The translations under genes and the position numbers were made by a program. DNA of 64,000 nt from a phage. Under the pieces are notes generated by a model, which ran no database searches, was not told the origin of the DNA, and worked only from the letters and a program-made list of their open reading frames with translations. Below are positions 5,844 to 62,898 of the stretch, one piece after another (the first letter of the stretch is position 1; every line of letters starts with the position of its first letter). The stretch lies in the sequence record PV805632.1, one strand, 5' to 3'.

Positions 5844-5847
5844 ACCT

Positions 5848-5874
5848 AAGACCTCCTCCGGGAGGTCTTTTTTT
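5848..5874 (+). terminator. rho-independent terminator
   Basis: AAGACCTCC-TCCG-GGAGGTCTT followed by TTTTTTT. Confidence 0.65.
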
Positions 5875-5902
5875 GGTTTCAATTACTGTCCCAGGAGGAC
5901 TT

Positions 5903-6127: not shown

Positions 6128-6136
6128 GGAAACAGT

Positions 6137-6656: not shown

Positions 6657-6789
6657 AGTATTCATCTATTTCATGGCTCTACCCTACATACTTAATGAGT
6701 TATTGGGTACATACGGTACAGCCGTAGGCATTTCTGTAGTTGTATTCAGTCTTTTCCTATAAGCAACATTTAAACTGGAGAGTAAATAA

Positions 6790-17015: not shown

Positions 17016-17299
17016 TGACTAAGCTCTCCGGTGGTCTTAATAACTACTATGTAGTTTCAATTAAGAATCCCCAACGGAAAGAGCAAGAGCCATATCAAGC
17101 AGAGTGTGAGGATATTATCCAAGCACTGGGCATGACCTTCGATGAAGGTTGTGCCTTTAAAGCTCTATGGCGAAATGCTGCTGCCCGTATGGGTAATGGT
17201 AAACCTGGCAACTCTTCAGTGTACGACTCAGAGAAGATTGTGCATTATGCCAATCGAATATTGAAAAAGGCTTACAATGAAAGTAACCAACAATCATGA
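17015..17299 (+). CDS. hypothetical protein
   Basis: 94-aa ORF, overlaps the upstream stop. Confidence 0.45.
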   Translation: MTKLSGGLNNYYVVSIKNPQRKEQEPYQAECEDIIQALGMTFDEGCAFKALWRNAAARMGNGKPGNSSVYDSEKIVHYANRILKKAYNESNQQS

Positions 17300-21256: not shown

Positions 21257-22060
21257 ATGTCACTGTTCGGTAACTTGAAAGAAAAGACCAAAAACGTTGA
21301 AGCTGCAAAAGACACTCTTGGTGGTGGTGGCTTCGGTGTGAAAGAATCTGATATCTACACCGGTACTGTAAAAGTAGCTTACGTAGGTAAAGCTGATTCT
21401 GGTGCAGACTGGATGCAATTAATCATCGAAAACCTGAAAGGTTCTGACGGCAATAATGCTGGTGAGTTCCGTGCTCAGGTGTACTTTACTTCTGGTAATG
21501 CTAAAGGCAATAAGCCAACTTACGAGAAGAATGGTAAAGAATACTTCCTGCCTGGTTACACTGTCATTAATGACATGATGCTTATGGCTACTGGTTGTGA
21601 ACTGCCGGATGCAGACTTTGAAGAGAAGATTGTTAAAGTCTATGACTTCGATCTGAAAGCTGAAACCAACAAGTCTGTCATGGTTCCAGTTGACCTGGTT
21701 GGTCAGACTGTTACCTTCGCTCTGGAAAAGGTTCTGGAAGCTAAACAGGTTAAAGGTGACAACGGTTACGTTGACTCCGGTGAAACTCGTGAAGTAAACG
21801 AGATTCAGAAAGTGTTTCACCCGGAACTGCTGGTCACAGTCGTCGAGGCTCAGGAAGCAGAGAAGGCTGAGAAAGAACTGACTCCAGAACTGGCTGTATT
21901 CTATGGAGCATGGCTGGAAAAGAACAAAGGTAAAACCCGTGATAAGACCAAGGGTTCTGCTGGTGGCAATGGTAAAGGTGGATTGCCTCCTAAACCAGGT
22001 GCAGGTGCTGGCACTGGTACTACTCCAGCTGGTGGTAAATCTCTATTCGGTAAGCGTTAA
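21257..22060 (+). CDS. putative single-stranded DNA-binding protein (N4 SSB-like by position), Gly-rich C-terminus
   Basis: 267 aa; downstream of primase and ATPase; Gly/Pro-rich tail; positional call only. Confidence 0.4.
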   Translation: MSLFGNLKEKTKNVEAAKDTLGGGGFGVKESDIYTGTVKVAYVGKADSGADWMQLIIENLKGSDGNNAGEFRAQVYFTSGNAKGNKPTYEKNGKEYFLPGYTVINDMMLMATGCELPDADFEEKIVKVYDFDLKAETNKSVMVPVDLVGQTVTFALEKVLEAKQVKGDNGYVDSGETREVNEIQKVFHPELLVTVVEAQEAEKAEKELTPELAVFYGAWLEKNKGKTRDKTKGSAGGNGKGGLPPKPGAGAGTGTTPAGGKSLFGKR

Positions 22061-23065: not shown

Positions 23066-23296
23066 TCTGGTAGGTGGCTCAGAAGCTGCTGCTAGGTGTG
23101 GTAGTGTTTATAGTCCTGATGCTACTACTGGTCAGGATTATAGACGTGTCGGCTCCATACATAGCTTTTATCATCACTGTCATTATCCTGTGGAAATGCA
23201 GTGGTAAACACGGTGGTGACAAGCCGCCAGAATAACAACAACCGAACCAGTGGATTGGAATACTCTCCCCAGTCCATTGGTTCAACCGAGGCTAAT

Positions 23297-23467
23297 ATGA
23301 ACAAATTTACTATTCACTGGCTCAATGGAATAGTTAGTTCTTTCATGGGTGGGGAACCTGTTGAAGGAAACAAAGCATTCCACATTGATTCAGAAGGCTG
23401 CAAAATCTTAGTACCATACGCTTGGTATAAGAATGGTGAAGTTGAAGCATTGAAAAAGAGCAGTTAA
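23297..23467 (+). CDS. hypothetical small protein
   Basis: ATG 23297 with GAGG 8 nt upstream; the longer track ORF from 23201 lacks an RBS. Confidence 0.4.
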   Translation: MNKFTIHWLNGIVSSFMGGEPVEGNKAFHIDSEGCKILVPYAWYKNGEVEALKKSS

Positions 23468-24525
23468 TATCGTGAAGGGTTCTGTCAGAATCCTTTGAGA
23501 TAGGAACTCCTATCATAACCTTTCTTAACTTAATCTTTGCCGTATGGCACTGACGCTAGGGGTGGCCCCCCATCCGTCAGACAGACTATTTTAAGAATAG
23601 GTTATCTCAGAAAATGTAAAGCAACATTCGGGTTAATCAATGGCCTCTTCTATAGGGGCCATTTCTGAATCTTAGGCTATATCCCAAAGGTTAGTATCTT
23701 TGGGATAAGGCTTCAGATCCCTTATCAAACTAACTGCTCAATGTTGAGTATATTAACTAACCAAGCCCAGTAAGGGGGCGGGAGTTTAATGCCGGTAAGC
23801 ATAAGCCTATCCGTCTACGACATCGAACTGTTAGATCTTACGTGCAACATAGGGTAATGGGAGGATTCGTCCCCTCCCACCTATTATGAACCAATTCGAA
23901 GTAGCACTGATTGATTAGCTGTGGAAGGTAGGCCGATGTCCACAAGCATGGCCCAGAATCAGTGCTACCCCTAATTGGAAGAATTAAGACGGGTCTGGTG
24001 AAGTAGATGGGGTTCGATTCCCTCCGGTGGAGTAATCCACTAGCGTGCTTGGTGCACGAATAAGACTTAGTACTGGTGGTTCGATTCCATCCCCCGTTAC
24101 CCGAAGTCGCCAGGTACTTATGGCAAACAACGAGGTAGTAACGAACTAGTCATTCGTCAAACGCCTCACCTAATTATGAGTCAGCAAGAACGCCTTCACC
24201 TAAACTTAAACAAAAAAGCTTAACGCAATAATTATGTAGGGGTATGTAAGGATTGCGAAGAAGGAGCCAGTTAGAGCCTGGTATGACTCACCTATTTAGC
24301 AGTAACATAGTCCTGATTGCATAGCACTCTAAAGACAACACTGGTAAGACAGTCCAGTGGCTGCTAATGTATAGTTATTCCCCTCGACGGGAATTTCGCT
24401 AGTGAAGGTAACACTTAAAAATCCAAACCTACGTCTTACTACTATCGGGCTATCAACCCACGGTCGCTTAACCCACTGGTGGTAGCAGTTTGACGGCCTG
24501 CCTCGTTGACTGCGTTAAAGTCACT
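23468..24525. other. ORF-free, highly structured non-coding region (candidate ncRNA / degenerate tRNA-like / origin region)
   Basis: no ORF of 60 aa or more on either strand; many perfect inverted repeats; two GGTTCGATTCC motifs; see findings. Confidence 0.5.
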
Positions 24526-24562
24526 AAGTCCCTCGGAGCCGTCACTCTGGGGGACTTTTTTA
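24526..24562 (+). terminator. strong rho-independent terminator
   Basis: about 12-bp stem AAGTCCCTCGGAG / CTCTGGGGGACTT followed by TTTTTT. Confidence 0.65.
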
Positions 24563-24590
24563 TTTGAGAACTACTTATGAGACGTTTTAT

Positions 24591-24743
24591 ATGATTGACC
24601 TAATCTTAACCCCGTATGCCTATGAGGTAACGGATAACCGAGGACGTAAGTCTTTGGTGTTTGCAGGTAGCGTAGCCTATAACAACGCAGTCATGTTTAA
24701 ATACAAACTTAAACCACTCTATGAGGCTAACAATGGAATTTGA
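24591..24743 (+). CDS. hypothetical small protein (50 aa)
   Basis: hand-translated ATG..TGA ORF; overlaps next small ORF (ATGGAATTTGA). Confidence 0.3.
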   Translation: MIDLILTPYAYEVTDNRGRKSLVFAGSVAYNNAVMFKYKLKPLYEANNGI

Positions 24744-24870
24744 TGATTTAGATTTTGAAGCTATTGAAAAGGCGAACCAGGAGAAGCTGGAACAGGCTAA
24801 TCGTGAAGCTGAAGAGCTAGAAAACGCTAAAGGTAACAACGATTGCACGAGTGGTGGTTGCACCATTTAA
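24733..24870 (+). CDS. hypothetical small acidic peptide with Cys-containing C-terminus (45 aa)
   Basis: hand-translated MEFDDLDFEAIEKANQEKLEQANREAEELENAKGNNDCTSGGCTI. Confidence 0.3.
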   Translation: MEFDDLDFEAIEKANQEKLEQANREAEELENAKGNNDCTSGGCTI

Positions 24871-24947
24871 CAAACAAGTGTAAGGTAGTTTTTACCGAAA
24901 GGTACTGAACTACTTACGTAGTGAGGCTGTAATAGCCAAAACAAAGA

Positions 24948-24969
24948 AAGCCCCTCATTTGAGGGGCTT
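24948..24969. terminator. bidirectional hairpin terminator between plus- and minus-strand blocks
   Basis: AAGCCCCTCA-TT-TGAGGGGCTT with T-rich flanks on both strands. Confidence 0.6.
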
Positions 24970-24975
24970 TCTTAT

Positions 24976-25578
24976 TTATACAGGATTTACTGTTTGAAAT
25001 ACCCTGACAGATACCTTAGTGAGTGTAATAGTTTGTCCACTAACGTTATGCATACCTAATTGTATGCCATTGACCATAAATGGGTCAGTGCTGCCCATGG
25101 TATATGTTGCAAGGTTTACTTCCTCGTTGCTTATATCATTACCCTGGAATTTAGAACTAAAAGCAGAACCCCTTATAGTTGTTCCATTGGGTCGTCTTGT
25201 TTGTGTTCTCCACTCTCTAACTGTCCCATCATCCCCGGCAATACTACCAGTAATCCGTACTACGAAAATTACTTGTGTATTGCCTTCTCTAGCAGGGAAG
25301 AGTAGATTGTTATCTAATATAGTAGTACCAGCAGTTCCTGCCGGATCCTTAGTTAAGCCTTCCAAACTAAAATAATTGAACCAGCTTGTATCAGTGATTG
25401 TCTGGCTTCCAGCCCAATCCCATATATCTAATAAAAAAGGATTTGGCAATTCTTTTGCCAAATCCTCGTCCGTTTTGGATGCAAGTATGCTTTTCCCCTT
25501 GTCTCCGATAAGGGTCATTCCACCCATAACCAAAGGCATTGCATCAAAACCCTGATCGTATTTGTCTTTAATGGTCAT
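24976..25578 (-). CDS. hypothetical protein
   Basis: about 200 aa from the internal Met (MTIKDKYDQ); the first Met of the track ORF lies inside the upstream terminator hairpin. Confidence 0.45.
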   Translation of the reverse strand: MTIKDKYDQGFDAMPLVMGGMTLIGDKGKSILASKTDEDLAKELPNPFLLDIWDWAGSQTITDTSWFNYFSLEGLTKDPAGTAGTTILDNNLLFPAREGNTQVIFVVRITGSIAGDDGTVREWRTQTRRPNGTTIRGSAFSSKFQGNDISNEEVNLATYTMGSTDPFMVNGIQLGMHNVSGQTITLTKVSVRVFQTVNPV

Positions 25579-25605
25579 AAAGTCCCCGTAGATAATAATA
25601 AAAAG

Positions 25606-25630
25606 AAAGCCCACACTACTGGTGGGCTTT
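25606..25630 (-). terminator. rho-independent terminator downstream of the giant ORF
   Basis: AAAGCCCAC-7 nt loop-GTGGGCTTT; on the minus strand followed by a T-rich tract. Confidence 0.55.
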
Positions 25631-25636: not shown

Positions 25637-28600
25637 TCAATTTACAAGGTTTATCCAAGGGTTCAGGTTGTGAGCACGAAGACCCTGACCAAAGCCCCAT
25701 GAGTAATCCAGACTACCCTTAGCAGCAATACTAAAGATGTTGTCCTGAATAGGTAAGCCAACATTACCAAACATGGTAGGAGTTGGAGCCAACATCGCCA
25801 TTGCTGCATGTACTGGGTTGTTACGAATCATGGACACTGCAACCTTAGCTGAACGAATCTTAAAGTTGTAGAACCACATCAAACCAACGCTTTCCATATA
25901 CCCACGGAAGCGACCAGGCAGACGGTCATAGTTAATGAACTCTTCGGTTACACGTCCCAGTGCTTCTTCACGAGTCTTACCTTTACGCTGGGTCAATTCA
26001 TCATAGATGATTGCTTTAGCGATAAAGTCAGAGTACTCAACCGTCTTCTGGATACCCTGGAACAGAGCAGTATCCTTAGTGATAAGTGCATAACGACCAG
26101 CAGCACGTACAGACTTAGGTAACTTATCCGCCAGCTTTTCCATGTATTCGTGAAGTTTACCTTCAGTAATCAGGATGTCATCACGACCAATACCAGCATC
26201 TGCAATTGAAGAGAACTCACCAGCTTCTATCAGAGGCCAGATACTCATACGCTTATGGCTATCAGTAATGGACTGAATCTCAGCCTTAAGTTTACGAATC
26301 TGGTTCGGGTTAGTAGCTGCACGTAATTCTGCTTCTGCATCTACCTGACGTAAACGAGATTTAAGGTATTGGTTAATCTCAGCAGTCTTCCGTGGAATGC
26401 TCTTAGCAATGCTCTTAACCGGTACACCACGAGCAACCATCTGGTAAAGGTTAGCCAAAAAGTTAACAACAGGTACGACTACTGACTTAACTACAATCAG
26501 AGTCTTAGCATCTTTAACTAAATTTTGAACCAGGTTCTCACCACCCATTAAGTACTTATAGGCACGGTTACCGGCTAAACCCAGAATAGCTTTTTTAAAA
26601 GTATTAAGCGTTTCCGGGGACCAACGAGAATTACCAGACCAAGCATCACCAATCGAAGCTGCACGATAGCCAAGTGCATCATTCAGCATGTCACGACGTA
26701 CCCACAGTTCACCCTCACCAAACAGTTTTTCTGCTTTCCGTCGAGTTTCACTGTTCATCAGCTTAAGAGCATCAGCAGTTACTGGGTCCAGTTTAGAACC
26801 AAAAAGGTTCACGTACTGGGACTTATTAGCAGCAGACATCTTAATGTCTTCCTTGTACATGCTATACAGGTTCTCAATCAGCATATCGTTGAAACGCTGA
26901 GCCTTAGCTTCTTCCACCTGACGACCACGCCATACACCAATTGCACGGGCAAGATGATTTTCACCTTCAATATGCTTCAGCATATTAGGGTTAATTGATT
27001 CCTCATAAGCAACCACATCACCTTTAGCATTATATACGGGCAATAGTGGTTCATTACCACGTTCACCACGAGCTAGTGCTTTAGCGATACGGTCTACAGA
27101 AGGCTTGTCAGTAATACGACCAGCTACCATGGAACCCATCGTAAAGCCTGTACCGAGGTCTACACCACCAGCAGTATTACGAACGTTCTGTAGAATACCT
27201 TGTGAGAACGGAGCCTGTGCCTGTACTGGGGCAAAGTAGTAGCTACGTGCCAGACCTCGGTTAGCAGAGCTACCTTGATAAGTACTCAGACGTACATAGG
27301 ACTTCTCTATCAAATCACCAAACTGGCTATCTTCAGCAACAACCAGACTAACACCCTGTTTAGTCTCACTAGGGATATACCCTTTGTACTGGTTCAGGGT
27401 TGCACGCATATTAGATTTGGCTTTAGCCATTTCATCTTTACGCTGCCCAACCAGGTAAGAAGTAGCAAAGTCCATTCCCTCAACTTCTGTCTGAGCCAGT
27501 GAAGATAACATCTCACGGTCGGACTTGTTCATTGCTTCCAGTGCATACAGGGTAATAAGTTTATCCAGTTGAGCTACATCTACAATAGAGCGAGTAGTCT
27601 TACGTTCACCTAACATACGAGAGATTGCAGTAGCATTCCGCAGCAAGTTTTTACCGACTGTGCCATTAATCATGTACTGAGCCAGTTGCTTAGATTTACG
27701 GTTAATCAGAGGCCAGTTACGACCAGCTTGTTTCTGCAAATCTGCTTCCAGCTTATTCACTTCACGGTCAACAATCTTCTGGTCAGATAGCAGGTCACGG
27801 ATTTCAGCCAGAGACATGGTGTCACGCAGGACAGCTAAGTCAGTTTTACCCATACCAGTGTACATTGCTTTCCACTCATCCTTAGTCAGCTTACGGCTGA
27901 ACTTAGATGCGATAGTGGTAGGCAGGTGTTCACGGAACTGCTGACGGTCAGCCTGCACCTGTGCACGAACTGCTTTAATCAAATCGTATACAGAAGCATT
28001 ACTCTTAGTACGACCGGTTAAGTCATTAACCAGGTCATGGAAAGGTTGCCATACTTTACCCTGGTTCATTGCAACCATAACGCCTTCAGCTACGTTTGCA
28101 CCATTCTTCTCTGTAGCAATAGCAGCCATTAGTTGTGCAGCATGAGCAGCACCCTTAACCAATGGATTTTTGGTATTGGCTGCAACTTCACGAGCACTTT
28201 CTAAAACACGGGTAGACAGTACATCAATAGAGTCCACCAAATACTGGTTAGCACGGTCAATAGCATTACCACTAGGAGTAGCAACGGAATCATAGAATGA
28301 CTGTGCATTAAGGCTAGTCTGCATGATTGTTTGAGCCAGTGCATCCATACCTTCCTGTACGTTGGTAGCTTTAGTGTCACCTGCTACACGAGCATTCAGG
28401 CTTGCCATTGCAGCAGTACCAATGTTAGTCAGCATTGCATCGACGGTATTCCCAGATTTCTTATCTGCTTTCATAACAGGAATGTTAGCCAGTACATTAC
28501 GTACCTCTTCACTTACCATTGCCAGACCAACAAAGGTAGGCAGTATTGAAGAACGACCCTGCGCATCAAACTCAATATTGTTAGCACCCATGATGGTATC

Positions 28601-31600
28601 GAACTTCTGCTGTGCATAGTAACGGTCAGCAGGGTTAGTACTATCTGGGTCAGTCATGAATGATTCAACAGTCAGGTTCTTAGTAACGTGTGCATAGTAT
28701 TCCTGTGCACGAGAAAGAGCAGCCGGACTAATAGCAGCTTCAGTAGCGAGTGCAGCAACAATGTTAGTAAAGAGACGCTGCTCCTGCATATTCATAGTGA
28801 AGCCATGAGCCTGAACATCACGGGTTACTTTAGTTGCGTGCTTTTTCGCATCAGAGAACTTACCTTCACGGATTACTTGCTGTACTGGTTCTGAACCAAT
28901 GTAGTTAGTAATCAGCTTATCAAATGTCTGTCCTAACTCTTCCAGACGGGTATTGTCACCATATGCTTTGTTATGGAACAAGGTAGTATCTTTGGCTACA
29001 GCAGCCGTAGGAGCCTGTCCACGCATAACTACTGAAGAGTTAAACAGTAAGCCAGAGAACATATCATCTGCATTAGCAGGTGCTTTCTTGCGACCAAATA
29101 CCAGACGTTTGATTGCTTCATATACTGACTGAACCATGGCTTTCAGTGCAGTGGTCTTCTTCTGCTTACTAATTAATTCACGGTTAGTTAAGCCCCAAGC
29201 CATGTACTCATTCAGTGCAGCAGCTTTAGCCATTGCTGGTTCAATAAAGCCGTTAGACAAGTGACCATTAATGGTATTAAGTGCATCAGCATATGCTTCA
29301 CGTACTGCCGGAGATTCATCCATAACATCCAGATTACGGAACTGGTTCATCAAGTCTTCAATATTCTGGACTGCTTCATTAGGAGTACCCTCATAGTGAG
29401 CCAGTACAGATTCAAAAGTAGAAGCATGTACTAATTCATGAACCAGAGTCTCTAGGGAAGGGGTAACTAAGTAGATGGTTTTATCATCAAAGTTAGTCCA
29501 GCCATACGCATTACCAGCTTCGGCAGCTTCAATATCTTCCGGTGCTGGACGAGTAATGTTCTTCTCAATAGCATAGGCATCCAGTTGAGCAGGAGTACCG
29601 TAAACAACTTTGTAGTCTTTAGCAGCAAGGGATTTCTGTATCTCTTTCAATACTGCTTGCTGTTCTGGAGACATCTCTTTAGCCAGCTTGGTAATAGCAG
29701 TATTAGACAATAGACGTACACCAGACTTAAGTACACGACCAACTTGTTCCATTGCTGGCACTTCTTTAACAGGTGCTTCTTTAGTAGGTACTTCTTTCAC
29801 TGGATCTGCTTTAGCAGCACGTACTGCATCACGACGCTTATTTAATTCAGCATCAAACAGTTCGTTCAGCTTAGCTACTTGCTGGTCTACAGTCAGTCCC
29901 TCAAGAGAAATTTTACCGTTGTTCACATAAGGAGCACCTACAGCAGCCATCTGGTCAACAGTGGTCTGTACCTGGTTCATTACTTTGTGGCGAATATCCA
30001 CACTTAAAGCAATGTTACGCAGGTTACGCTCAATAAGGTTAACACCTGAATTCTTAATCATATCAATCTTATACTGCCTGTCTCCCTCAACGCGACTGAT
30101 ATGAGAAAGCTGTTCAAAATCTAAAGCGGAACGGGCAATGTCATCAATTGTCTTATCTGACAACTTATCAAAGTCTACATTCTTCAAGAACTCAGAGAAG
30201 GATTCATATACAGCCTTGATAGGATTCCCCTGCCAGGAAGTGTATACAGCCTCGTTTGCTTTACGACTTGCATCAGTGATGTCACTAATACCAATGTTCA
30301 TACCATCAAAGATTTTCAGGGTATTCTTCGGAGCACCTTTCATAGTAGAAAGGGTCTGCATCATCATGCCATCACCAGTACCGATGGTCATAAATGGAAT
30401 ACCTGCAACACCTGCTTGTGAAGGAGCATAGATGCTCATTGGCACACGCATACGGTCATCTAAGTTGGTAGCCAGTACTTGGTTAGCAACGTCAGTACTC
30501 TCACTGCCAGCAAGGTAGAAAGTCTGTGAGCCAGTCTCAATCATTGGAGCCAATGGAGATAATGATTCCTGGATTTCATTCAGTTCTTTCTGTGTTAAGA
30601 AATCACCCTTCTTCCAGGTTGGGTCTTTTTCTTTTTCTGCTAGCTTAGCCTGTACTGCTTGCTGGAACATATCCTGCAATACCAGAGACTGAATCTGAGT
30701 AGCCTTCTGCAAGTTCTCAGTAGAGTACATCAGACCTTCACCAACAGTATTACGGATACCGGTACGCATTGGCTCAACGAACAAATGGAGCATGTTCTCT
30801 TGTAAGTTCTTCAGAGCATTACCGGATACGGTAAATTTCTGAGGGTCTAACTTACCAGTCAGAGCACCATCTACTTCCTTAATAAATAACTTACCTTTGC
30901 GCTTAGCTGGAATTTTACCAGTCAGTGCTTCCATAGAAGTAAGGAAGGTATCCAGCATAGCCTGAGCATCTGCCTCAGACGCAGCCTCTTTACCAAACAT
31001 TGCCATAGCCGGGGAAATGCTGGGGTCAGCAGCACGTGCTTGCAGAACGTCGCTGAAACGTTCGTAGATGGTGTCAGTAATTGCACCGACTATATTACCA
31101 GCAATACCACGTGCACCAGCACCATAGATGGTAATGGTCAGGGGGTTTTTAGCGATGCCACGTTTCAGGTCCAGAGTACCATCTTCATTCAGGTTAAAGT
31201 CTTTAATGAACAGGTCCATTAACTTCTGGAGATGATTTATCTGGTTTATAACTGGAACGTTGTTACGGTAAGTAGTACGTAACGCATTCAGTGCTTGTTG
31301 CAGACCATTGGTAGATGCTTCATACAAGTCAACATTATCGTCGATAGAACAATGTTCGTTCATCGTTTTACCAGCACGACCGAAGAACAAACCACCTTTG
31401 GCAGTATTCTTAATCCAGTCTGGGGTGAACTTACCACCAGTCATTAATACCATTGCGTTGATTGGGCCGTTGGTTACACCATCAGCTTCAACGTACAGAG
31501 GGGTAGTAAAATTAGCACGGTCATCACTGTTCAGGTAACGGGCATATTCCATCAGGGCCATGAGAGCTACGAAGGATTTGTTATCACCCAGAGAGGTTTT

Positions 31601-34600
31601 CAGAATATCTACTGCATCAGTAGGTAAATAACCAGACTTATCAAACTCAACCATCATATCAACAGCAGGTTTCAAATTACCTTCCAGAGCTTTGGTCAGA
31701 TTTTCAGACATAGCTTCACGGGACATTTTATGTACCTTGATGCCCAATGCCTGAGCCAGACCTAACTGGAAGTCAGAGAATGCTTGGCTGTTTTCATTAC
31801 TCAAGTCGATAGTGGAGAAGGTTGGCAGAATTGCTTCACGAACCAGTTTACTGGATTGTGGGTTATTCTTACCAAGCATCTGCATACGACCTACACGGGT
31901 CATGTTGTAACCGTAGTGAATGGGGGTATCCAAACCATTCTCTTGTTCTTTTAGCTGATTAATTAAACCGAACAAAGAATCATATGCCATAGATACCGAT
32001 AAGTTCTTACCTTCCAGAGATTTGGCAGTGTTTTCATTCAGCAAATCAGGATTAAGAGAACCAGCACCCATCAGTTCCAGAATGCCGTCTCGGCCTAATG
32101 CTTCATAGAAGTTAACCATCGGCATGTGTACACGGAACTCCGTAGCCTGTTCAGCTTTCAAAGCAGCTTTCTGTTCCGGGGTATTCCTAACAGCAGGGTT
32201 ACGTAACTGAGTTTGAGCCACGGAAGGAATGTCATCACCGAAGTACGTTTTCTCTTCCGGATTTACCAGCACAGCTTCCTCAATTGCTGTAGGGAAATTA
32301 TTAATAGGGTCTTTATCTGCCAACTTATTAATAGTGTACAAACCAATAGTCTTATTAGAATCCGGGTCAATCTCAGACACATCCAGCATAGTCTCAGTAA
32401 CTGCACCCATCTCGATGAGGGAAGACAGAATCTCTGTAGCCATTGCCACTGGAATACCCTTGGTATAACCCAGTGGTGCATTAGGGTTACGGTTTAAACC
32501 CCAGTAGGATTCAATCTTTTGAGCCAGTGAGTTAGTAGCCTCAATCAGAGTCTGGGCATTCTCGAACTCAGCCAGAATACTTTCTGGTAACAGAGATGCA
32601 TCTACACCAGTAATAGCAGCCACGTCTTTCATATCTTTAATGGCAGCATTCTGTGTAGCAGTCAGTCGCCATTGCAGACCAGCAAGTACAGCAGTCTCTA
32701 ACAACTGGTCATTGAACTTAAAGGTATCTCCATCTTTCTCTACGATGTTAAGTAACTTACCACCTACCCAACGGTTAGCCTCAGTACCTTCTGCAAAACG
32801 TTTACCAACATTTTTATTAGCAAGGAACTTAGCCAGTCGTTCAGACAGAGTAGCCTTCAGAGTTTCCCCAAAGTCCATCAAGTCTTGATAGCGTTCTAAC
32901 ACATCACCTGCGAGAACGTTATTTTCTTTTTGAGTGAACGCTTCAAAGCGAGCAGCAGAAGACAGTGCTTGCTTGATATCAGCCAAAGGAGATTCAGAAC
33001 CAATGGTACGGGACTTAGGTTCTTCCGGTAGGGTAAATGCCTTCAGGAACTGGTTCGGTGTCTTCTCATTGTTATAGACAGGGAACACTGCTTCCATTCC
33101 AGAAAGGGGTTTGCCACCCACTGTATAATCTGCTTTCAGCTGAGCCAGTGATACTTCATCCTTCTCCACGTTGTTAGTGTTACGACCAGTGGTATCTACA
33201 CCAACCAGAATCTGTGCATTATTGGCTTCAACGAAAGACTGAACAGTATTGAATTGTTCAGCAGTCAGCTTCTGATTATCAAACAGTTGCAGAGATACAA
33301 ATGGTTGTTCACTGCCTTTATAGAAGGTAGAGCGAATAGCACCTGTATCCAGGGACATATCACGATACCCATCATGCCCAAATACGTCGGACAGGCTGAT
33401 ATGGTCGCCATTAGAACCAACCACAGTACCATCAGCAAACAGCCATGGACTCTCCCTACGATCACCATACTTATTAAGAGTTTCCTGTGAAATAGTATTT
33501 TCTTTCACATAGGCATCTCTTTCAGATTCAGTAGGTTGCTCGATGGTATCCTCATTAGTGGGGGTAGCATCATCTACAACCGGGCTAGTCTTTTCAGACT
33601 TAGGTACTTTCTCTTCCTGTACAGGTGTAACTTCTGGCTGGGAGAATGTATTACGTACATAGTTCATAAAATCATTACGTGCTTGAGAAGGAGAAGACCA
33701 TACTTCCCGTGTGCTACGTAAACTAAAGATTCGACCTTCAGGAGTCATTACGTAAGGTACATTTGTTTTACCGTACTTAAATGAAGTGAGTACATCTGAC
33801 TTACCAGTAACAGTGCTTTCCCCTGGAATGACAATAGTCTTACCACCAGTAGAGGGAACAGCACGAACACCCTCAATATCCTTACCAAGAGAAATATACT
33901 CTTTACCGTTGTAATCAAAGTACTGACCTATCTGCATATAGGTAGCTTGTTGCTTACCAGTAAACTCAGCAGTTTTCATCTCCGGGCCGTTAGGTACAGA
34001 CGTACTTTCAGACTTAGGCTTAGATACTTTCTCTGGTTCTGACTTAGACTCTACAGTGTTAGGAGCAGTTTTATTGTTTACCACTGGTTTAGCTTTAGAC
34101 TGTACAGTAGTAGTGTCCTCTTGCACTGGTGCAGGGGTTTCATCAACCTGATTCACTGGTTCATTAGTCTGTTGGGACTGAGTGGCATTAAGACCACCTT
34201 GACGGAACTCTTTAACTACCTGGGCAGCTGGCTTGTTCAGACGTGAATCCAACGAGGTAACTTTCACATGAGAAACATTAAGCTCCGGGTAAGCCGTAGC
34301 AAGTGCGTTAGCAATATCAGCTACGGTCTTAGCTTCCAGCGCTACTTGCTGGGCAAACTTAACAGACTTGGTATCATAAGGATTAACACCGAGGCCAGTA
34401 CGACTACGTACCCATTCACGCGTAGGCGTGAGAGCCTGATAATGAACAGACTTATTCTTATCCGCATTCCCCGAAATCAGATGCTCATTCAACGCTCCGA
34501 CCTTATTCTGCATGTGCTGGGCGAACTTCATAAAATCGCTCAGATAAGCGGAGGCCAAATCGAAGTTACCAGAGTTATACGCAGAACGAATGCGTTTCGC

Positions 34601-36898
34601 ATGTTGCAACGCAGAGTACTGTCCTTCATTAGAACGAGACTCGTCGGTTTTAATCTGTTTACTAACGATGTCTTGACGACGTAAGCCCAGTTCTTCTGCT
34701 TTAGCATCATACTCACGTGCACCCTGTAACAGAGCAGCAGCTGATTGCAGGGCAGCACGTTGACGATTATTCAGTGTAATCTTACCCTCACTCGCATGCT
34801 TCAGAACCATGTTCACTGAATCTGCATCCAGTACTTCTGGAGACACATCAGCAGCCATAGCAATGTTGTTTGCTTGGGCTTGGTTAGCTTCTTCAGTAGC
34901 TTTCAGCTTACCTGCTTCAGCCTGTTCCTGAATCATAGAATGGATGGCACGGAATGCACGAAGTACTTTAGGGGTATTCTGTATGTTAGCCATCAGACCG
35001 GAGAACTGGTCTACGATTGCAGCAGCAGGGGAACCTTGTTCCAGATTAGCCAGTGCACCTGGGTCACGGTTAATGAAGCTATCCATAGACATGATGTTGT
35101 CATACATCTGGATTGCAGCTTCCATTTGAACGTTAGGGTCTTCAGCAGTATTAACCAGGTCAGCCATCTTCTGAATAGCTTCCACACGGTTAGTGGAACC
35201 AGAAACAGCTTCGCGGATTACTGGGTTAGCTTGCTCCAATTCTACTGGGTCAAACTTCATTGCCTGAGTTAAATCAGCAGCATACTGGGTAGCAGCAGCC
35301 TTCTCTTCTGGAGTGATATCCATTGCATCTACTGCTTCCTGTACAGTTGCTTGTGCTTGCTCTGCCTGAGCAGCAGCTTCCTGTGCAGCAGCATTAACCG
35401 TAGCATCAGCTACAGGGGATGCTTGTTCATTACGCTTAGCAACTTCTTCACCACGTTGAACCAGGATGTTAGTAAGAGGAGATGCAGCTTTTGCTAATGT
35501 TTTACCAACCAGAGAAGCACCAGCCAGAGTAGTACGAAGAGCAGGGCCAGCAGCAGCACCGGCAGCTTTAACAGTTGCACCAGGAGCTTGAGCAACCCCA
35601 GCACTACCGAAGCCATAAAGTGCACCAAGACCAGCTTGCTCACCAACCCCTTTGAGAGTATCTCGGGATGCATCAACATTTTCCTTGATTGCACGGTTCT
35701 GGGCATACTGACCAAAGCCTGACTGAATACCTTCTTCAACTGTTTCACGTAGCATATTGGAACCAGCACCAGCCAGTGAACCTACCTTAAGTGGGTTAAG
35801 TTCAAAGCGAGATACCAGTGGACCGGTAGCAGCAGCAACTGGAGCAGTTAAGCCAGCAGCAAGGATACCTGTTTCAGATGCAGTCTGACGACGTGCTTCA
35901 TCAGGAGATAAACCATCGGCAATATGTTGTTGGTAAACAGGAGACTTACTTGCCAGTTCTGGATGGGACATCTTCATGATTTCAGAAGCAGTCTGTTGGT
36001 ATGCACCACCAGCTTCCATAGCACCGATTGCAATAGCAGGTGCAGCAACACGACCAGTAGACAATGCAACCTGTGCAGGACGTGAACCCAACCCAGCAGC
36101 TAAGGTAATACCCTTAACAGCTTTATCACCACCTACCATTACTTTACCGAGTGCAGATACACCACGGATAAGTGGACCACCGGTAAAGAGGGAACCAACA
36201 CCTTCACTCAGTCCATCTGAGGCAGCCATACCATTATCAAGTGTGTTAGCAACAGAGTCGAAAGCGTCACGACCAATACGAGACAGGGAGGCAACCAAAT
36301 CGCTCTCCCCGTTTTTGATATCCTGTTCATAGAGTTTCTGGTTCTTTTGGGCAGAAATCTGGTTCTGATTCTGAACAACTTTACGGGTAGCATTCAGTGC
36401 ATCAGACTGTAGATTGTGTACACCTTCATTCAACCAATCCATCCCGGAAGCAATGGTTGCCCCGGCATTATCATTGACCAGACCTGCGCCAAGAGCAGCA
36501 ATGCCCCCAAGGGTATTAGCAACACCAAGACCAACACCAGAAAGAGTATCGCCAAATGCTTCTGCGTTAGTACGCTGTTTAGATAAGTCCTGACGTACAG
36601 CATCCGCAGCATTAGCTCGGCTATTAAGAATCTGTAAACCTTGCTCATTACCGTACTTATTAATGATTTCTAATGGGGAGGCTTGAGTGAAATCTGCCTG
36701 AAGTGAACCTGGTTCGAATGCACCGATTCCAAGATTACCTACTCGTCCAGTCTGGAGATTGTAAGCATTCTCTGGGGTTAATTGGAAAGGGTTTTGCCCT
36801 TGTGCAGCTTGCTTCTGAGAGGTTGCAGTAGAGACATCGACTTGCTTAGCATTAGTGATGCTGTCTGCGAAACCTGCCAGACGGTCAAATGTTGACAT
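25637..36898 (-). CDS. giant virion protein consistent with the N4-type virion-encapsidated RNA polymerase (vRNAP)
   Basis: continuous 11.3-kb ORF (3759 aa from the TTG in the track; 3753 aa from ATG 36898 with AGGAAA RBS); size and position in the late operon match the N4 vRNAP; catalytic motifs not verified. Confidence 0.7.
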   Translation of the reverse strand: MSTFDRLAGFADSITNAKQVDVSTATSQKQAAQGQNPFQLTPENAYNLQTGRVGNLGIGAFEPGSLQADFTQASPLEIINKYGNEQGLQILNSRANAADAVRQDLSKQRTNAEAFGDTLSGVGLGVANTLGGIAALGAGLVNDNAGATIASGMDWLNEGVHNLQSDALNATRKVVQNQNQISAQKNQKLYEQDIKNGESDLVASLSRIGRDAFDSVANTLDNGMAASDGLSEGVGSLFTGGPLIRGVSALGKVMVGGDKAVKGITLAAGLGSRPAQVALSTGRVAAPAIAIGAMEAGGAYQQTASEIMKMSHPELASKSPVYQQHIADGLSPDEARRQTASETGILAAGLTAPVAAATGPLVSRFELNPLKVGSLAGAGSNMLRETVEEGIQSGFGQYAQNRAIKENVDASRDTLKGVGEQAGLGALYGFGSAGVAQAPGATVKAAGAAAGPALRTTLAGASLVGKTLAKAASPLTNILVQRGEEVAKRNEQASPVADATVNAAAQEAAAQAEQAQATVQEAVDAMDITPEEKAAATQYAADLTQAMKFDPVELEQANPVIREAVSGSTNRVEAIQKMADLVNTAEDPNVQMEAAIQMYDNIMSMDSFINRDPGALANLEQGSPAAAIVDQFSGLMANIQNTPKVLRAFRAIHSMIQEQAEAGKLKATEEANQAQANNIAMAADVSPEVLDADSVNMVLKHASEGKITLNNRQRAALQSAAALLQGAREYDAKAEELGLRRQDIVSKQIKTDESRSNEGQYSALQHAKRIRSAYNSGNFDLASAYLSDFMKFAQHMQNKVGALNEHLISGNADKNKSVHYQALTPTREWVRSRTGLGVNPYDTKSVKFAQQVALEAKTVADIANALATAYPELNVSHVKVTSLDSRLNKPAAQVVKEFRQGGLNATQSQQTNEPVNQVDETPAPVQEDTTTVQSKAKPVVNNKTAPNTVESKSEPEKVSKPKSESTSVPNGPEMKTAEFTGKQQATYMQIGQYFDYNGKEYISLGKDIEGVRAVPSTGGKTIVIPGESTVTGKSDVLTSFKYGKTNVPYVMTPEGRIFSLRSTREVWSSPSQARNDFMNYVRNTFSQPEVTPVQEEKVPKSEKTSPVVDDATPTNEDTIEQPTESERDAYVKENTISQETLNKYGDRRESPWLFADGTVVGSNGDHISLSDVFGHDGYRDMSLDTGAIRSTFYKGSEQPFVSLQLFDNQKLTAEQFNTVQSFVEANNAQILVGVDTTGRNTNNVEKDEVSLAQLKADYTVGGKPLSGMEAVFPVYNNEKTPNQFLKAFTLPEEPKSRTIGSESPLADIKQALSSAARFEAFTQKENNVLAGDVLERYQDLMDFGETLKATLSERLAKFLANKNVGKRFAEGTEANRWVGGKLLNIVEKDGDTFKFNDQLLETAVLAGLQWRLTATQNAAIKDMKDVAAITGVDASLLPESILAEFENAQTLIEATNSLAQKIESYWGLNRNPNAPLGYTKGIPVAMATEILSSLIEMGAVTETMLDVSEIDPDSNKTIGLYTINKLADKDPINNFPTAIEEAVLVNPEEKTYFGDDIPSVAQTQLRNPAVRNTPEQKAALKAEQATEFRVHMPMVNFYEALGRDGILELMGAGSLNPDLLNENTAKSLEGKNLSVSMAYDSLFGLINQLKEQENGLDTPIHYGYNMTRVGRMQMLGKNNPQSSKLVREAILPTFSTIDLSNENSQAFSDFQLGLAQALGIKVHKMSREAMSENLTKALEGNLKPAVDMMVEFDKSGYLPTDAVDILKTSLGDNKSFVALMALMEYARYLNSDDRANFTTPLYVEADGVTNGPINAMVLMTGGKFTPDWIKNTAKGGLFFGRAGKTMNEHCSIDDNVDLYEASTNGLQQALNALRTTYRNNVPVINQINHLQKLMDLFIKDFNLNEDGTLDLKRGIAKNPLTITIYGAGARGIAGNIVGAITDTIYERFSDVLQARAADPSISPAMAMFGKEAASEADAQAMLDTFLTSMEALTGKIPAKRKGKLFIKEVDGALTGKLDPQKFTVSGNALKNLQENMLHLFVEPMRTGIRNTVGEGLMYSTENLQKATQIQSLVLQDMFQQAVQAKLAEKEKDPTWKKGDFLTQKELNEIQESLSPLAPMIETGSQTFYLAGSESTDVANQVLATNLDDRMRVPMSIYAPSQAGVAGIPFMTIGTGDGMMMQTLSTMKGAPKNTLKIFDGMNIGISDITDASRKANEAVYTSWQGNPIKAVYESFSEFLKNVDFDKLSDKTIDDIARSALDFEQLSHISRVEGDRQYKIDMIKNSGVNLIERNLRNIALSVDIRHKVMNQVQTTVDQMAAVGAPYVNNGKISLEGLTVDQQVAKLNELFDAELNKRRDAVRAAKADPVKEVPTKEAPVKEVPAMEQVGRVLKSGVRLLSNTAITKLAKEMSPEQQAVLKEIQKSLAAKDYKVVYGTPAQLDAYAIEKNITRPAPEDIEAAEAGNAYGWTNFDDKTIYLVTPSLETLVHELVHASTFESVLAHYEGTPNEAVQNIEDLMNQFRNLDVMDESPAVREAYADALNTINGHLSNGFIEPAMAKAAALNEYMAWGLTNRELISKQKKTTALKAMVQSVYEAIKRLVFGRKKAPANADDMFSGLLFNSSVVMRGQAPTAAVAKDTTLFHNKAYGDNTRLEELGQTFDKLITNYIGSEPVQQVIREGKFSDAKKHATKVTRDVQAHGFTMNMQEQRLFTNIVAALATEAAISPAALSRAQEYYAHVTKNLTVESFMTDPDSTNPADRYYAQQKFDTIMGANNIEFDAQGRSSILPTFVGLAMVSEEVRNVLANIPVMKADKKSGNTVDAMLTNIGTAAMASLNARVAGDTKATNVQEGMDALAQTIMQTSLNAQSFYDSVATPSGNAIDRANQYLVDSIDVLSTRVLESAREVAANTKNPLVKGAAHAAQLMAAIATEKNGANVAEGVMVAMNQGKVWQPFHDLVNDLTGRTKSNASVYDLIKAVRAQVQADRQQFREHLPTTIASKFSRKLTKDEWKAMYTGMGKTDLAVLRDTMSLAEIRDLLSDQKIVDREVNKLEADLQKQAGRNWPLINRKSKQLAQYMINGTVGKNLLRNATAISRMLGERKTTRSIVDVAQLDKLITLYALEAMNKSDREMLSSLAQTEVEGMDFATSYLVGQRKDEMAKAKSNMRATLNQYKGYIPSETKQGVSLVVAEDSQFGDLIEKSYVRLSTYQGSSANRGLARSYYFAPVQAQAPFSQGILQNVRNTAGGVDLGTGFTMGSMVAGRITDKPSVDRIAKALARGERGNEPLLPVYNAKGDVVAYEESINPNMLKHIEGENHLARAIGVWRGRQVEEAKAQRFNDMLIENLYSMYKEDIKMSAANKSQYVNLFGSKLDPVTADALKLMNSETRRKAEKLFGEGELWVRRDMLNDALGYRAASIGDAWSGNSRWSPETLNTFKKAILGLAGNRAYKYLMGGENLVQNLVKDAKTLIVVKSVVVPVVNFLANLYQMVARGVPVKSIAKSIPRKTAEINQYLKSRLRQVDAEAELRAATNPNQIRKLKAEIQSITDSHKRMSIWPLIEAGEFSSIADAGIGRDDILITEGKLHEYMEKLADKLPKSVRAAGRYALITKDTALFQGIQKTVEYSDFIAKAIIYDELTQRKGKTREEALGRVTEEFINYDRLPGRFRGYMESVGLMWFYNFKIRSAKVAVSMIRNNPVHAAMAMLAPTPTMFGNVGLPIQDNIFSIAAKGSLDYSWGFGQGLRAHNLNPWINLVN

Positions 36899-36965
36899 AG
36901 CATGTTTCCTGTTCAAACTTATATCGTATATAGGTAACCTACTCTACAGTAAGCCAGTGTAAGAA

Positions 36966-36985
36966 AAAAGCCCCGTAGGGCTTTT
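36966..36985. terminator. hairpin terminator between the 648-aa virion gene and the giant ORF
   Basis: AAAAGCCC-CGTA-GGGCTTTT (8-bp stem). Confidence 0.5.
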
Positions 36986-37001: not shown

Positions 37002-38948
37002 TTAAGGCATTTTCACATACCCAGGTATGCCTTGGGCTTGGCGTATATACCGTATAGCACGCTCCTGGTTTTCTTTCTCAGCCTCCCGATCTACAGAAGC
37101 CTGTGATCGAAAATTACGTGGAGCCAGGTTTTGAGGGTCAGCCTGAACTTGGCCCTGGGCATTTTTAAGCATTTCAGCAGCTCTACGTACTTGTTCCTGT
37201 CGTGCAGGTAACAGTGCAGTAAGTCCAGTCTGCCCAGTAGCAATCTTATTCTGAGTATTTGTCAGTGCAGCTACAGCAGCATCATATGCAGTCTGTGCTG
37301 CCTGAATATTCTGCATAGCCTGAGCACGACCAAGGTTACGTACACTTGCTTCAAGGGGTTCACCACGTTTTAGCCCCTCAATCATTTGGTCTACCTGACG
37401 GTCATTAAGTCGCAAGCCATTACCGGCTTCTGGGGTTTGTCCTATGGTTAGATAATCAATAAGACGTCCTGTATTACTTTCCGGTACGTTAGTCATTGCA
37501 CGTTGAACAACAACACCTGCCATAGCCGGGGATACATTAGCACGCTGAGCAATATCATTGATACGAGCCACAACCCATTGTTTATCTGCCCCCTTAAAGT
37601 CACCCTCTAGTAATCTGTTAGCAACTTCCCCAACAGTAGAAGTGTCATTTAAGGCAGGTAAATAATCGGGGGCAATACTTCCAGCATTGTCCTCCATAGA
37701 ACGAGTACCAATCATACCGGTAGCCAGAGTAGATACTGCCTGATTGCCCTGAGCCATAGCAAGTGGGTCAGCCCCTACTTCAGCTTGAGCAATAACAGGT
37801 TTCATCTCTTCCCATGTCTTATCCTTATAAGCACCTGGAGTAGCGTTAGGCAGAGCAGCCCAGGTATCTTTAAGGTTACCGTTCTTACGAGCCTCGAAGA
37901 TAGCCCTACCAATCTTATCCTGGTTCTCAGGAGAAAGAGGCTGGCTTTGCCAATCTGAACCAAGAACTTTGGGAGCGAAGTCTAGCAGAGTAGCTTGGTT
38001 AATCTGGAATGCACCAACAGGAGAAGCACCCTGCTTCGTCTTCATACTATCCTGGTGTTTAATTACATCACCAATACTCATTTGAGTAATAGGGGTAGAT
38101 GTACCAGCAAACTGGTAAGTAACATCATAAGGGGAACCCTGACGAGTACCAGCAGTGCCTGGTGCAGACGTAGCACCAACATTGTTACCGTAAACACCTG
38201 GATATGCTCGTGCAAGCATTTCCTGCAAACGTGCCTGTGCAACCGGAGACAGATTCTTACTATAGGATTCTGCCAGAATACGGGCATCGTCAGCATTCTC
38301 AGCACCTCTAGTAATCAGTGCCATTACACCCGTAGCAGCCTGACTATCAGCATCATTACGTTGAGCAACACCCAAATCAAAACGGTTCTGTGCCTGATTA
38401 ATAGCCTGACCACTTTGGCCTTGAAGACGGCTCAGCATGTCCAATTGCTGGTCAGCAGGGAGTGCAGACAATGCATCGCGGGTCTGACTTAATGCAGCAT
38501 TAATACGGTTCTGGTCTCCAGACTGATAAGCCTCAGACAGTAAACGAATAGCTGGGGAAGCATTATCTAATGCAGAGTTAGTATCTTGTAACCGTCCAAG
38601 GTTATAAGAATTGTAGTCATTGGTTCCCTGCTGACCTTGTTGAGTCAGCAATGTACCTGCTCGCTCATCCAGGTTTTGGAGGGTACGCTGGTTTATCAAT
38701 GAACGGTCAACCCCCTGAAATAATGCACCAGATGCCAAAGCATTACGGTACTCAGTAGGGTCTTGGTACTGCATAGCATTCATCATGACGGCATTGCCAG
38801 CCTCCTGCTTGGCAGCGTTCTGGAAATTACCCAGTGCATCACTTAAGCCGGAGGTGGCGTTACCAATCATGCTACCAAATGTGCGAATGCTGTCACCAAC
38901 TCCGGAGAAGTTAGGTGCATCAACATTTCTCCACGTTATCTGAGCCAT
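37002..38948 (-). CDS. virion-associated protein (Q/A/N-rich)
   Basis: 648-aa ORF immediately upstream of the giant ORF; positional call. Confidence 0.45.
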   Translation of the reverse strand: MAQITWRNVDAPNFSGVGDSIRTFGSMIGNATSGLSDALGNFQNAAKQEAGNAVMMNAMQYQDPTEYRNALASGALFQGVDRSLINQRTLQNLDERAGTLLTQQGQQGTNDYNSYNLGRLQDTNSALDNASPAIRLLSEAYQSGDQNRINAALSQTRDALSALPADQQLDMLSRLQGQSGQAINQAQNRFDLGVAQRNDADSQAATGVMALITRGAENADDARILAESYSKNLSPVAQARLQEMLARAYPGVYGNNVGATSAPGTAGTRQGSPYDVTYQFAGTSTPITQMSIGDVIKHQDSMKTKQGASPVGAFQINQATLLDFAPKVLGSDWQSQPLSPENQDKIGRAIFEARKNGNLKDTWAALPNATPGAYKDKTWEEMKPVIAQAEVGADPLAMAQGNQAVSTLATGMIGTRSMEDNAGSIAPDYLPALNDTSTVGEVANRLLEGDFKGADKQWVVARINDIAQRANVSPAMAGVVVQRAMTNVPESNTGRLIDYLTIGQTPEAGNGLRLNDRQVDQMIEGLKRGEPLEASVRNLGRAQAMQNIQAAQTAYDAAVAALTNTQNKIATGQTGLTALLPARQEQVRRAAEMLKNAQGQVQADPQNLAPRNFRSQASVDREAEKENQERAIRYIRQAQGIPGYVKMP

Positions 38949-53233: not shown

Positions 53234-53257
53234 ATAAACCTCTTTGTTTTTCTAAGA

Positions 53258-53275
53258 AACCCCGCCGAAGCGGGG
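53258..53275 (-). terminator. hairpin CCCCGC-TTCG-GCGGGG between the two tail fibre/spike genes
   Basis: identical to the 18-nt element at 50632-50649; followed on the minus strand by TTTCTT and an AAAGAGG RBS. Confidence 0.5.
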
Positions 53276-53280
53276 GTATT

Positions 53281-61220: not shown

Positions 61221-61326
61221 GGTATGTTGACTCATGGGTGTACTACCCTACCCCACCTTACACGTTACACGTTGCTCCGCAACTTATGGACATGTCGTCC
61301 TATCATCAACTATTGGAGCTATCATC

Positions 61327-61886: not shown

Positions 61887-62070
61887 AATGTCCCTGAATC
61901 TAAATCACCGTAAGAATCTCTGGATATCTTACATACCCTAAAAGACAACGACGCTCCGCGTCTTATGGATGATGTAAATGCATCCACTAATCATTGAAAT
62001 TTTATCCTTTTGTTTGGGTGTTCTCACCGACGAGTTCACCCGTAAATCACATAAATCTGGAGAGTACAAA

Positions 62071-62897: not shown

Positions 62898-62898
62898 A

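Follow-up and report, generated by a model that had tools for sequence, protein, structure and literature searches.

The 64,000-nt stretch of phage DNA in sequence record PV805632.1 (hereafter the window, that is, the whole 64-kb stretch analysed) carries on its minus strand, at 25637..36916, by far its longest open reading frame (ORF), comprising 3759 codons counted from a TTG and no internal stops. An earlier note on this DNA had described a single minus-strand ORF of about 3750 codons at these positions and had taken it for the virion RNA polymerase (vRNAP) gene of an N4-like phage. The ORF list and the stop-free translation bear out the reading frame, with its start moved to 36898, the first in-frame ATG, from which the encoded protein begins MSTFDRLAGFADS...; this is the same start as that of N4 gp50 (MSVFDRLAGFADS...) and of the annotated gp50 of Escherichia phage vB_EcoP_G7C (G7C). 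Because N4 and G7C gp50 share this start and an AGGA ribosome-binding site (RBS; 36907..36910, minus strand), lying inside a conserved AGGAAAC block, is found 8 nt upstream of it, the biological start is almost certainly ATG 36898 and not TTG 36916, giving a vRNAP coding sequence of 25637..36898 (minus strand, 3753 amino acids (aa) plus stop) within the mechanical ORF that reaches TTG 36916. In DNA of 44% GC, chance cannot account for an ORF of this length. The ratio of nonsynonymous to synonymous substitution rates (dN/dS) against phage Bp4 is 0.06-0.18, which marks it as a coding sequence under constraint, with purifying selection across all domains.

Homology makes it very nearly certain that this ORF encodes the virion-encapsidated, host-injected single-subunit RNA polymerase, the gp50 orthologue, of a G7C-like coliphage of the N4 family. 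Megablast against 50,697 phage records gave the gene annotated as 'virion RNA polymerase' in G7C as the best nucleotide match (96.8% identity, 100% gene coverage), and 88 phage records, nearly all of N4-like coliphages and their relatives, match the gene. For the protein, identity amounts to 97.9% with G7C gp50 and to 66.4% with N4 gp50, the alignment with the latter spanning query residues 1-965 and 1257-3752 and covering the N-terminal, polymerase and C-terminal domains. The similarity to N4 gp50 and mini-vRNAP for which the earlier note had suggested a search was readily detected, with PDB matches by phmmer falling exclusively on N4 vRNAP entries, all at E=0 (full-length 11gp, 9pnq, 9pnr and others; mini-vRNAP 3q0a, 3c2p and 2po4). 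Four Pfam domains specific to N4 vRNAP (N4_RNAP_helical, vRNAP_dom_2, vRNAP_dom and vRNAP_plug, E 1e-25 to 3e-99; Pfam ids PF21624, PF21894, PF21867 and PF21769) scored far over their gathering cut-offs, and PHROG 2206 'virion RNA polymerase' covers residues 25-3752.

The polymerase catalytic motifs, which had been left unverified in the earlier note, are all intact. In mini-vRNAP numbering they comprise R424 of T/DxxGR, D559 of motif A, R666, K670 and Y678 of motif B and D951 of motif C, corresponding here to R1671, D1806, R1913/K1917/Y1925 and D2198, with identical local sequence. Among the residues that read the promoter hairpin in N4 co-crystal structures, as listed in PMC4496689, K114, R119, W129, K268, K849, K850, D901 and R904 are all conserved in identical local context (here K1362, R1367, W1377, K1516, K2096, K2097, D2148 and R2151). 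A zincin-like HExxH motif is also kept in the C-terminal domain, where HELVH at aa 2487-2491 aligns to the N4 HELVH at 2228. Nothing found contradicts the identification, and two observations limit it: K267, a contact of the N4 beta-intercalating hairpin, is Asn in this vRNAP (the single change among the promoter contacts), and the RNAPII genes gp15/gp16 are expected (by G7C 5265-7885) in the ~6 kb beyond the window, so that the three-polymerase scheme is only partly covered, with the homologues of the RNAPII cofactors gp1 and gp2 present at ~61327-61650 and 61978-62454.

That the giant ORF might instead encode a tail fibre, a tape measure, an internal scaffold or a similar structural protein could be argued only from its size and its position among virion genes. 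Such similarity, named by the earlier note as what would speak against a polymerase, did not appear, no tail-fibre, spike or tape-measure family being matched in Pfam, PHROG or NCBIfam. The tailspike genes sit elsewhere (gp63.1 and gp66 homologues, 50678-56481), and the end-to-end homology to N4 gp50 together with the intact T7-like polymerase motifs already refutes the proposal, which we regard as vanishingly improbable. The gene is the orthologue of annotated, well-understood genes (G7C gp50 and N4 gp50) and belongs to already known biology; the main result is therefore a confirmation, with nothing new for vRNAP biology. As to its labelling in public records, the gp50 orthologue is misannotated as 'DNA polymerase' in U1G, ST4 and PD205 and as 'gram positive anchor domain protein' in ECBP1 (JX415535), is called 'hypothetical protein' in the KKP 3715 record and is overlaid by ~30 small opposite-strand pseudo-ORFs in that of Klebsiella phage K57alpha1.2.

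Candidate recognition sites for the polymerase were found in the same DNA by comparing hairpins with a short stem and a 3-nt loop from the left ends of N4 and G7C and from 59.4-64 kb of the window. The published vRNAP promoter grammar (PMC4496689) comprises template -8G, -9C, -10G, -11G and -12A, and a 4-nt ruler, with the start lying 8 nt downstream from position -8. Two plus-strand hairpins satisfy it. The P1-like hairpin at 61271..61283 (template GTTGC-GGA-GCAAC; coding strand GTTGC-TCC-GCAAC followed by TTATGG) has a predicted start at 61288, upstream of the gp1 homologue, and the P2-like hairpin at 61950..61962 (template GACGC-GGA-GCGTC, again followed by TTATGG on the coding strand) has a predicted start at 61967, 11 nt before the gp2 ATG at 61978, the corresponding distance in N4 being 10 nt. 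Both sit at positions homologous to N4 P1 and P2 (N4 hairpins 90-102 and 557-573, the latter with the template strand AAGAAGC-GGA-GCTTCTT), and the strict composite motif occurs exactly twice in the 64 kb, both strands taken together, against 0.015 occurrences expected from shuffles. Because the promoter-contact residues are conserved and the two hairpins fit the grammar, the polymerase and its predicted recognition sites are both in the window and are, as judged from sequence, mutually consistent. A fixed promoter pattern, GAAGCNNNGCTTC, gave one chance-level match and was replaced by this de novo hairpin comparison with N4 and G7C. A third plus-strand hairpin, at 60003-60015 (template CCTAC-GGA-GTAGG), is located near the right end of the genome, on the upstream side of the gp71 homologue, and recurs unchanged at G7C 70584; as -8 is A and not G and the ruler downstream diverges, it may be a vRNAP promoter that is weak or degenerate, or may have arisen by chance.

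The domain boundaries were transferred by alignment from those published for N4 (PMC13434306); all lie on the minus strand. The N-terminal domain (NTD) occupies aa 1-901 (34196..36898; N4 aa 1-906) and includes a region at aa 224-274 (36077-36229) aligned to the predicted membrane-spanning helices of N4. It is followed by linker 1 (aa 902-1265, 33104..34195; N4 aa 907-1006), the polymerase (mini-vRNAP; Pol) domain at aa 1266-2361 (29816..33103) and linker 2 at aa 2362-2385 (29744..29815). The C-terminal domain (CTD) consists of subdomain C1 (aa 2386-2629, 29012..29743), with the HELVH motif encoded at 29426-29440 (PMC5512222, PMC13434306), and subdomain C2 (aa 2630-3753, 25640..29011), aligned to N4 aa 2376-3500, a region reported to be mostly alpha-helical (PMC13434306). 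Within the proline/lysine-rich repeat of linker 2 (..KEVPTKEAPVKEVPA..) there is a 5-aa insertion relative to G7C (aa 2368-2372, 29783-29797), a length polymorphism.

The alignment with N4 breaks between query residues 965 and 1257, where linker 1 is expanded. In N4 linker 1 is a 100-aa low-complexity segment (residues 907-1006; PMC13434306); here it extends over ~360 aa and contains two blocks, block 1 (aa 971-1088, 118 aa; 33635..33988, minus strand) and block 2 (aa 1140-1262, 123 aa; 33113..33481, minus strand), embedded in low-complexity spacer rich in P, E, T and K. Measured between VVKEFRQG and FTLPEE anchors, the linker is 386 aa long in this phage and in G7C, which have both blocks, 242 and 223 aa in Bas96 and Bp4, which have block 2 only, 103 and 96 aa in PhAPEC7 and Klebsiella phage K57alpha1.2, which have neither, and 128 aa in N4, likewise with neither. 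Outside the linker, the vRNAPs of the Gamaleyavirus phages Bas96, Bp4, PhAPEC7 and K57alpha1.2 are 90-96% identical in amino acid sequence to the present one in NTD, Pol and CTD. Searching all phage records by tblastn located block 2 in ~28 Escherichia/Shigella records and block 1 only in G7C and Shigella phage B2; in IMG/VR block 1 was found only in the G7C record itself. Both modules are under purifying selection (dN/dS 0.02-0.13). A recombination study of the G7C set lists 22 variable loci, none of them in g50, and no description of the linker modules was found in the literature searched, which was not exhaustive; their sequence has long been public in G7C.

Block 1 is 100% identical to its counterpart in G7C and 76.3% identical to a segment at the same linker position of the B2 vRNAP over 118 gap-free residues (dN 0.143, dS 1.15, dN/dS 0.125), and it is not present in N4, Bas96, Bp4 or PhAPEC7. 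The B2 vRNAP, from a phage of a different subfamily, is otherwise only 26-34% identical to this one (NTD, Pol, C1 and C2; dN 0.66-0.93). The disparity between 76.3% identity in the block and 26-34% elsewhere in the protein indicates that block 1 is a discrete module that was transferred laterally between vRNAP genes and then held by purifying selection. A single-sequence AlphaFold model was of low confidence (pLDDT 38.6); the secondary structure predicted from it is beta-rich with a C-terminal helix. Weak matches of block 1 to FG-GAP repeats (P0021/P0022) were judged to be beta-hairpin noise and set aside.

Block 2 is distributed far more widely. It is shared with other Gamaleyavirus vRNAPs. 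A word-indexed protein search gave two fragments, and 1.84 billion cluster representatives were then searched exhaustively with HMMER; this returned 22 matches, essentially all to block 2, which is conserved across ~20 clusters at 50% identity. Among the matched proteins is a distant true vRNAP (P0012), with block 2 in the same slot before the polymerase. Others are unrelated giant proteins: P0003, in which block 2 is ~66% identical, has methyltransferase, ddrB-ParB and LPD39 domains, and P0004, of 3675 aa with an HExxH motif, is 62% identical in block 2 and has no other similarity. Further carriers combine block 2 with LPD38 (P0005), LPD22 (P0007) or SLT (P0008), and it is also found on six divergent IMG/VR contigs, where one host protein is of the ART-PolyVal plus LPD39 type. 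The P0003 match seemed to run on into block 1, as if both blocks stood there in tandem, but this proved spurious.

In an alignment of 20 block 2 sequences (A1), residues S, P, L, G, D, H, R and Q are invariant, among them D1165, H1166, R1189 and Q1215 of this protein. Those other than Q lie in the motifs SPWL-x2-DG, GDH and TGA-x-R; the invariant Q lies in a conserved Q-x-LT-x2-Q stretch modelled around the start of a helix. An AlphaFold2 model built on A1 is a compact alpha/beta domain (mean pLDDT 93.7, pTM 0.88). A PD-(D/E)XK or splicing-endonuclease-like fold was considered for it and rejected, as a significant fold match combined with a catalytic D...(D/E)xK signature on the core strands was not found. 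BFVD returns only the orthologous segment of pSb-1, and neither block is hit by any LPD or PBECR model of Pfam. Because block 2 is shared with polyvalent proteins and has no family or fold match, it is, on this homology, an uncatalogued domain of the polyvalent-protein repertoire of Iyer et al. (PMC5512222), to which it adds an unnamed member. The linker modules as a whole are a side observation of modest value.

What the modules do is a matter on which we offer a best guess, at somewhat short of even odds: they may be accessory effector domains that are co-injected with the polymerase and have a host-interaction or anti-defence role, a reading suggested by the autonomous distribution of block 2 among polyvalent proteins and by its invariant polar residues. 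As for relatives that might point to a function, block 1 gave nothing significant in Pfam, PHROGs, NCBIfam or PDB sequences (best PDB hit gliomedin, E 0.12), and block 2 gave no Pfam, PHROG, NCBIfam or PDB sequence match and no Foldseek match in the PDB at E<=0.001 (best TM 0.36). The relatives that lack both blocks (PhAPEC7 and K57alpha1.2) are viable phages, and the modules are therefore dispensable for core function. The alternative that the modules are structural and serve ejection, lengthening or stiffening the tether between NTD and polymerase or oligomerising injected copies at the inner membrane, seems to us rather doubtful. They do sit exactly in the linker said to anchor the refolded polymerase to the membrane (PMC13434306), and at 118 and 123 aa they are 'beads' small enough for tail passage. 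Block 2 also has a marginal match to a FliF ring-building-motif profile (E 0.014 over 37 residues), but this weak lead is short and non-significant, and the fold searches return no ring-building domains. The relatives without modules function normally, and the occurrence of block 2 at 62-66% identity in non-vRNAP giant proteins of wholly different architecture suggests that it functions autonomously, and its invariant polar residues (D, H, R and Q) resemble a functional site more than a spacer.

Neutral or selfish insertion by illegitimate recombination into a permissive disordered linker is improbable. It would fit the variable presence of the blocks among vRNAPs that are >90% identical elsewhere, the low-complexity linker tolerant of length change and the many other indels relative to G7C in this genome, such as those of HNH endonuclease genes, but the dN/dS of block 2 (0.02-0.09) is at or under that of the polymerase domain (0.13), and that of block 1 against B2 is 0.125 despite a dS of ~1.1. 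In addition, block 2 folds confidently and is conserved across its ~20 clusters, and the insertions are always in frame. Extending the effector reading, we consider it conceivable, if doubtful, that linker 1 of Schitoviridae vRNAPs is a recombination-permissive 'cargo slot' by which phages gain, lose and laterally exchange small, autonomously folding domains; these would enter together with the polymerase and stay at the inner membrane, on its cytoplasmic side, with block 2 an early host-directed or anti-defence effector of unrecognised fold and block 1 a cargo recently moved between Enquatrovirinae and Humphriesvirinae. Two structural studies of 2026 describe N4 gp50 as beads on a string, in which a disordered tether between NTD and polymerase keeps the enzyme at the membrane. 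Natural variants with zero, one or two tether beads in near-identical phages form a ready-made experimental series, which could probe the tolerance of the tether during ejection and the use of vRNAP as a delivery vehicle for extra domains.

An intrinsic-terminator-like hairpin on the minus strand (36966..36985) separates the vRNAP gene from the gp51 homologue, whose stop codon is at 37002-37004. It is formed by AAAAGCCC-TACG-GGGCTTTT followed by TTCTT and begins 16 nt past that stop. Its folding energy is -12 kcal/mol against -3.2 +/- 1.6 for shuffled sequences (z -5.4; 0/200 shuffles as stable), it is kept from N4 to G7C-like phages though the flanking spacer has diverged, and the annotation of PhAPEC7 marks it as a putative terminator. 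It was missed by the generic terminator scan, probably since under the maximal-stem rule of that scan not enough T's remain in the tail. Folding and conservation to N4 thus uphold the separation of the vRNAP gene from its upstream neighbour by this hairpin. The further suggestion that it fully terminates the upstream late transcript, leaving the vRNAP gene with a promoter of its own in 36899-36965, we judge less likely than not. The hairpin is a canonical, stable and conserved intrinsic terminator, and between it and the RBS lies a GATATAAGTTTG block that is conserved from N4 to G7C-like phages though the flanking spacer has diverged and that is, besides the RBS, the sole conserved block between the hairpin and the vRNAP start codon; moreover, N4 late promoters need activation of host RNA polymerase by N4SSB (PMC4496689) and so may deviate from consensus. 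Against this, a sigma-70 scan of 36899-36965 detected no sigma-70-like site, and the TATAAG of the conserved block (36918-36923) is without a -7 T and would start a transcript at or in the RBS (36907-36910). Alternatively, the hairpin may be an attenuator that allows partial read-through, which would accord with the 4 +/- 1 copies of gp50 against 12 of gp51/gp52 reported per N4 virion (PMC13434306).

The entire window is colinear with G7C at ~96-97% identity, in keeping with the N4-like architecture and synteny proposed in the earlier note. The plus-strand block contains homologues of gp24 to gp47, among them rIIA, rIIB, dCTP deaminase, thymidylate synthase, helicase, DNA polymerase and primase, together with a Sak4-like gp44 and N4SSB (gp45, ~21257-22060), so that the plus-strand module recognised in that note, including its SSB, agrees with the annotated G7C genes. 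The minus-strand block runs in the order gp69, terminase, tail proteins, tailspikes, lysis genes, portal, major capsid protein, gp54-gp51 and gp50, the ejection-protein genes gp52 and gp51 being directly upstream of the vRNAP gene. The vRNAP gene accordingly does follow the capsid, portal and virion-protein genes (gp69 to gp51 homologues), but it is not the last minus-strand gene, as 24976-25578 comes after it.

A bidirectional terminator hairpin (25606..25630) is found 7 nt past the vRNAP stop, with equivalents annotated in G7C and PhAPEC7. The 200-aa gene directly downstream of the vRNAP gene (MTIKDKYDQG...; 24976-25578, minus strand) lies between this terminator and another at 24944-24973, in DNA not shared with G7C (window 24971-25599 in place of ~256 bp of G7C). 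Its product has full-length homologues of <=58% identity in N4-like phages (Bp4, pSb-1, and Salmonella and Aeromonas phages), inconsistently annotated as hypothetical protein, 'tail needle knob' or 'protease', and has no Pfam or NCBIfam match. Between the gp47 homologue and this gene, ~1.7 kb (~23305-24975) hold only short ORFs of <=88 aa, with a strong plus-strand terminator at 24526-24557; comparable unannotated gaps occur at the same place in G7C (34295-36187) and N4 (32112-33632). No tRNA or Rfam family was found anywhere in the 64-kb window. Four HNH homing-endonuclease genes of G7C (gp24.1, gp41.1, gp47.1 and gp2.1) are absent at otherwise colinear junctions (1867-1884, 17259-17277, 23262-23304 and 62512-62524), the pattern expected of mobile endonuclease genes.

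Toward its end the window crosses the physical end of the genome: 61182-61650 matches both the right-end continuation of G7C (to 72225) and its left terminal repeat (G7C 7-468), and 61878-64000 matches G7C 1156-3290 with gaps; the terminal repeat is therefore collapsed and the assembly circularly permuted relative to G7C. Early-region DNA at 62778-63296 is without a G7C counterpart and holds a 134-aa ORF (62899-63303, plus strand) with no Pfam match. Two related strong plus-strand hairpins with a common AATAGGAG arm, at 61654-61680 (a 12-bp stem right after the gp1 homologue) and 63801-63817 (a 7-bp stem followed by a T-run), are likely early-transcript terminators.

For this phage, sequence comparison shows that the gene is orthologous from end to end, that its catalytic and promoter-recognition residues are intact and that two predicted cognate hairpins are present, and by analogy with N4 we infer the packaging, ejection and activity of its vRNAP. 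Following the mechanism drawn by homology from PMC4496689, PMC13434306 and PMC13492108, the vRNAP would be made late and packaged at ~4 copies per virion in a manner requiring the CTD, and would be expelled through the tail, preceded by gp52 and gp51, which make up the outer-membrane complex and the periplasmic tunnel, respectively. Its lipid-binding NTD would then insert at the inner membrane and contribute to the inner-membrane complex, while the T7-like polymerase domain refolds in the cytoplasm. Supercoiling by host gyrase would extrude the promoter hairpins, the template-strand hairpin being stabilised by E. coli SSB, and the Pol domain would transcribe the early genes gp1, gp2, gp15 and gp16 from these single-stranded DNA hairpin promoters. 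The CTD is expected to pack against the Pol domain and autoinhibit the polymerase, and the linker modules would be accessory 'beads', co-injected and placed at the cytoplasmic membrane face beside the polymerase.

Among known systems, G7C gp50 (HQ259105 / NC_015933; Schitoviridae, Gamaleyavirus) has the same locus, with the two linker modules, the gp51 homologue and the terminators. Compared with it, this vRNAP carries 79 substitutions and, at aa 2368-2372 of linker 2, the 5-aa insertion; at the genome level, this phage is without the four HNH endonucleases of G7C, and the gene that directly follows vRNAP is a different one. N4 gp50 (2PO4, 3C2P, 9PNQ, 9PNR, 11GP) has the same NTD-linker-Pol-linker-CTD organisation (C1 with HExxH, and C2) at 59-68% identity per region, the same promoter grammar, the same upstream hairpin and identical catalytic residues. 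It differs in a linker 1 of ~100 aa without a folded domain, compared with the ~360 aa and two modules found here, and in the D2012-R2279 'clasp' salt bridge, whose Asp partner is Glu in this vRNAP. The gp30 vRNAP of Shigella phage B2 (Humphriesvirinae, Ithacavirus) has block 1 at the same linker position and no block 2.

The polyvalent proteins (PMC5512222) are likewise giant, multidomain and DNA-delivered, with a zincin-like HExxH and variable accessory domains. This vRNAP, encoded in a virion-gene neighbourhood, was found to share with them the giant multidomain make-up, the HExxH metallopeptidase (MPTase) domain and an accessory domain that occurs in other such proteins. For N4-like RNA polymerases, Iyer, Burroughs, Anand, de Souza and Aravind (2017; PMC5512222) give ART, lysozyme and PBECR as accessory domains, and block 2 is shared with polyvalent proteins carrying ART-PolyVal, LPD39, LPD38, LPD22, ddrB-ParB, SLT and methyltransferase domains. 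A further difference from the polyvalent proteins is that N4 vRNAP is reported to be packaged unprocessed.

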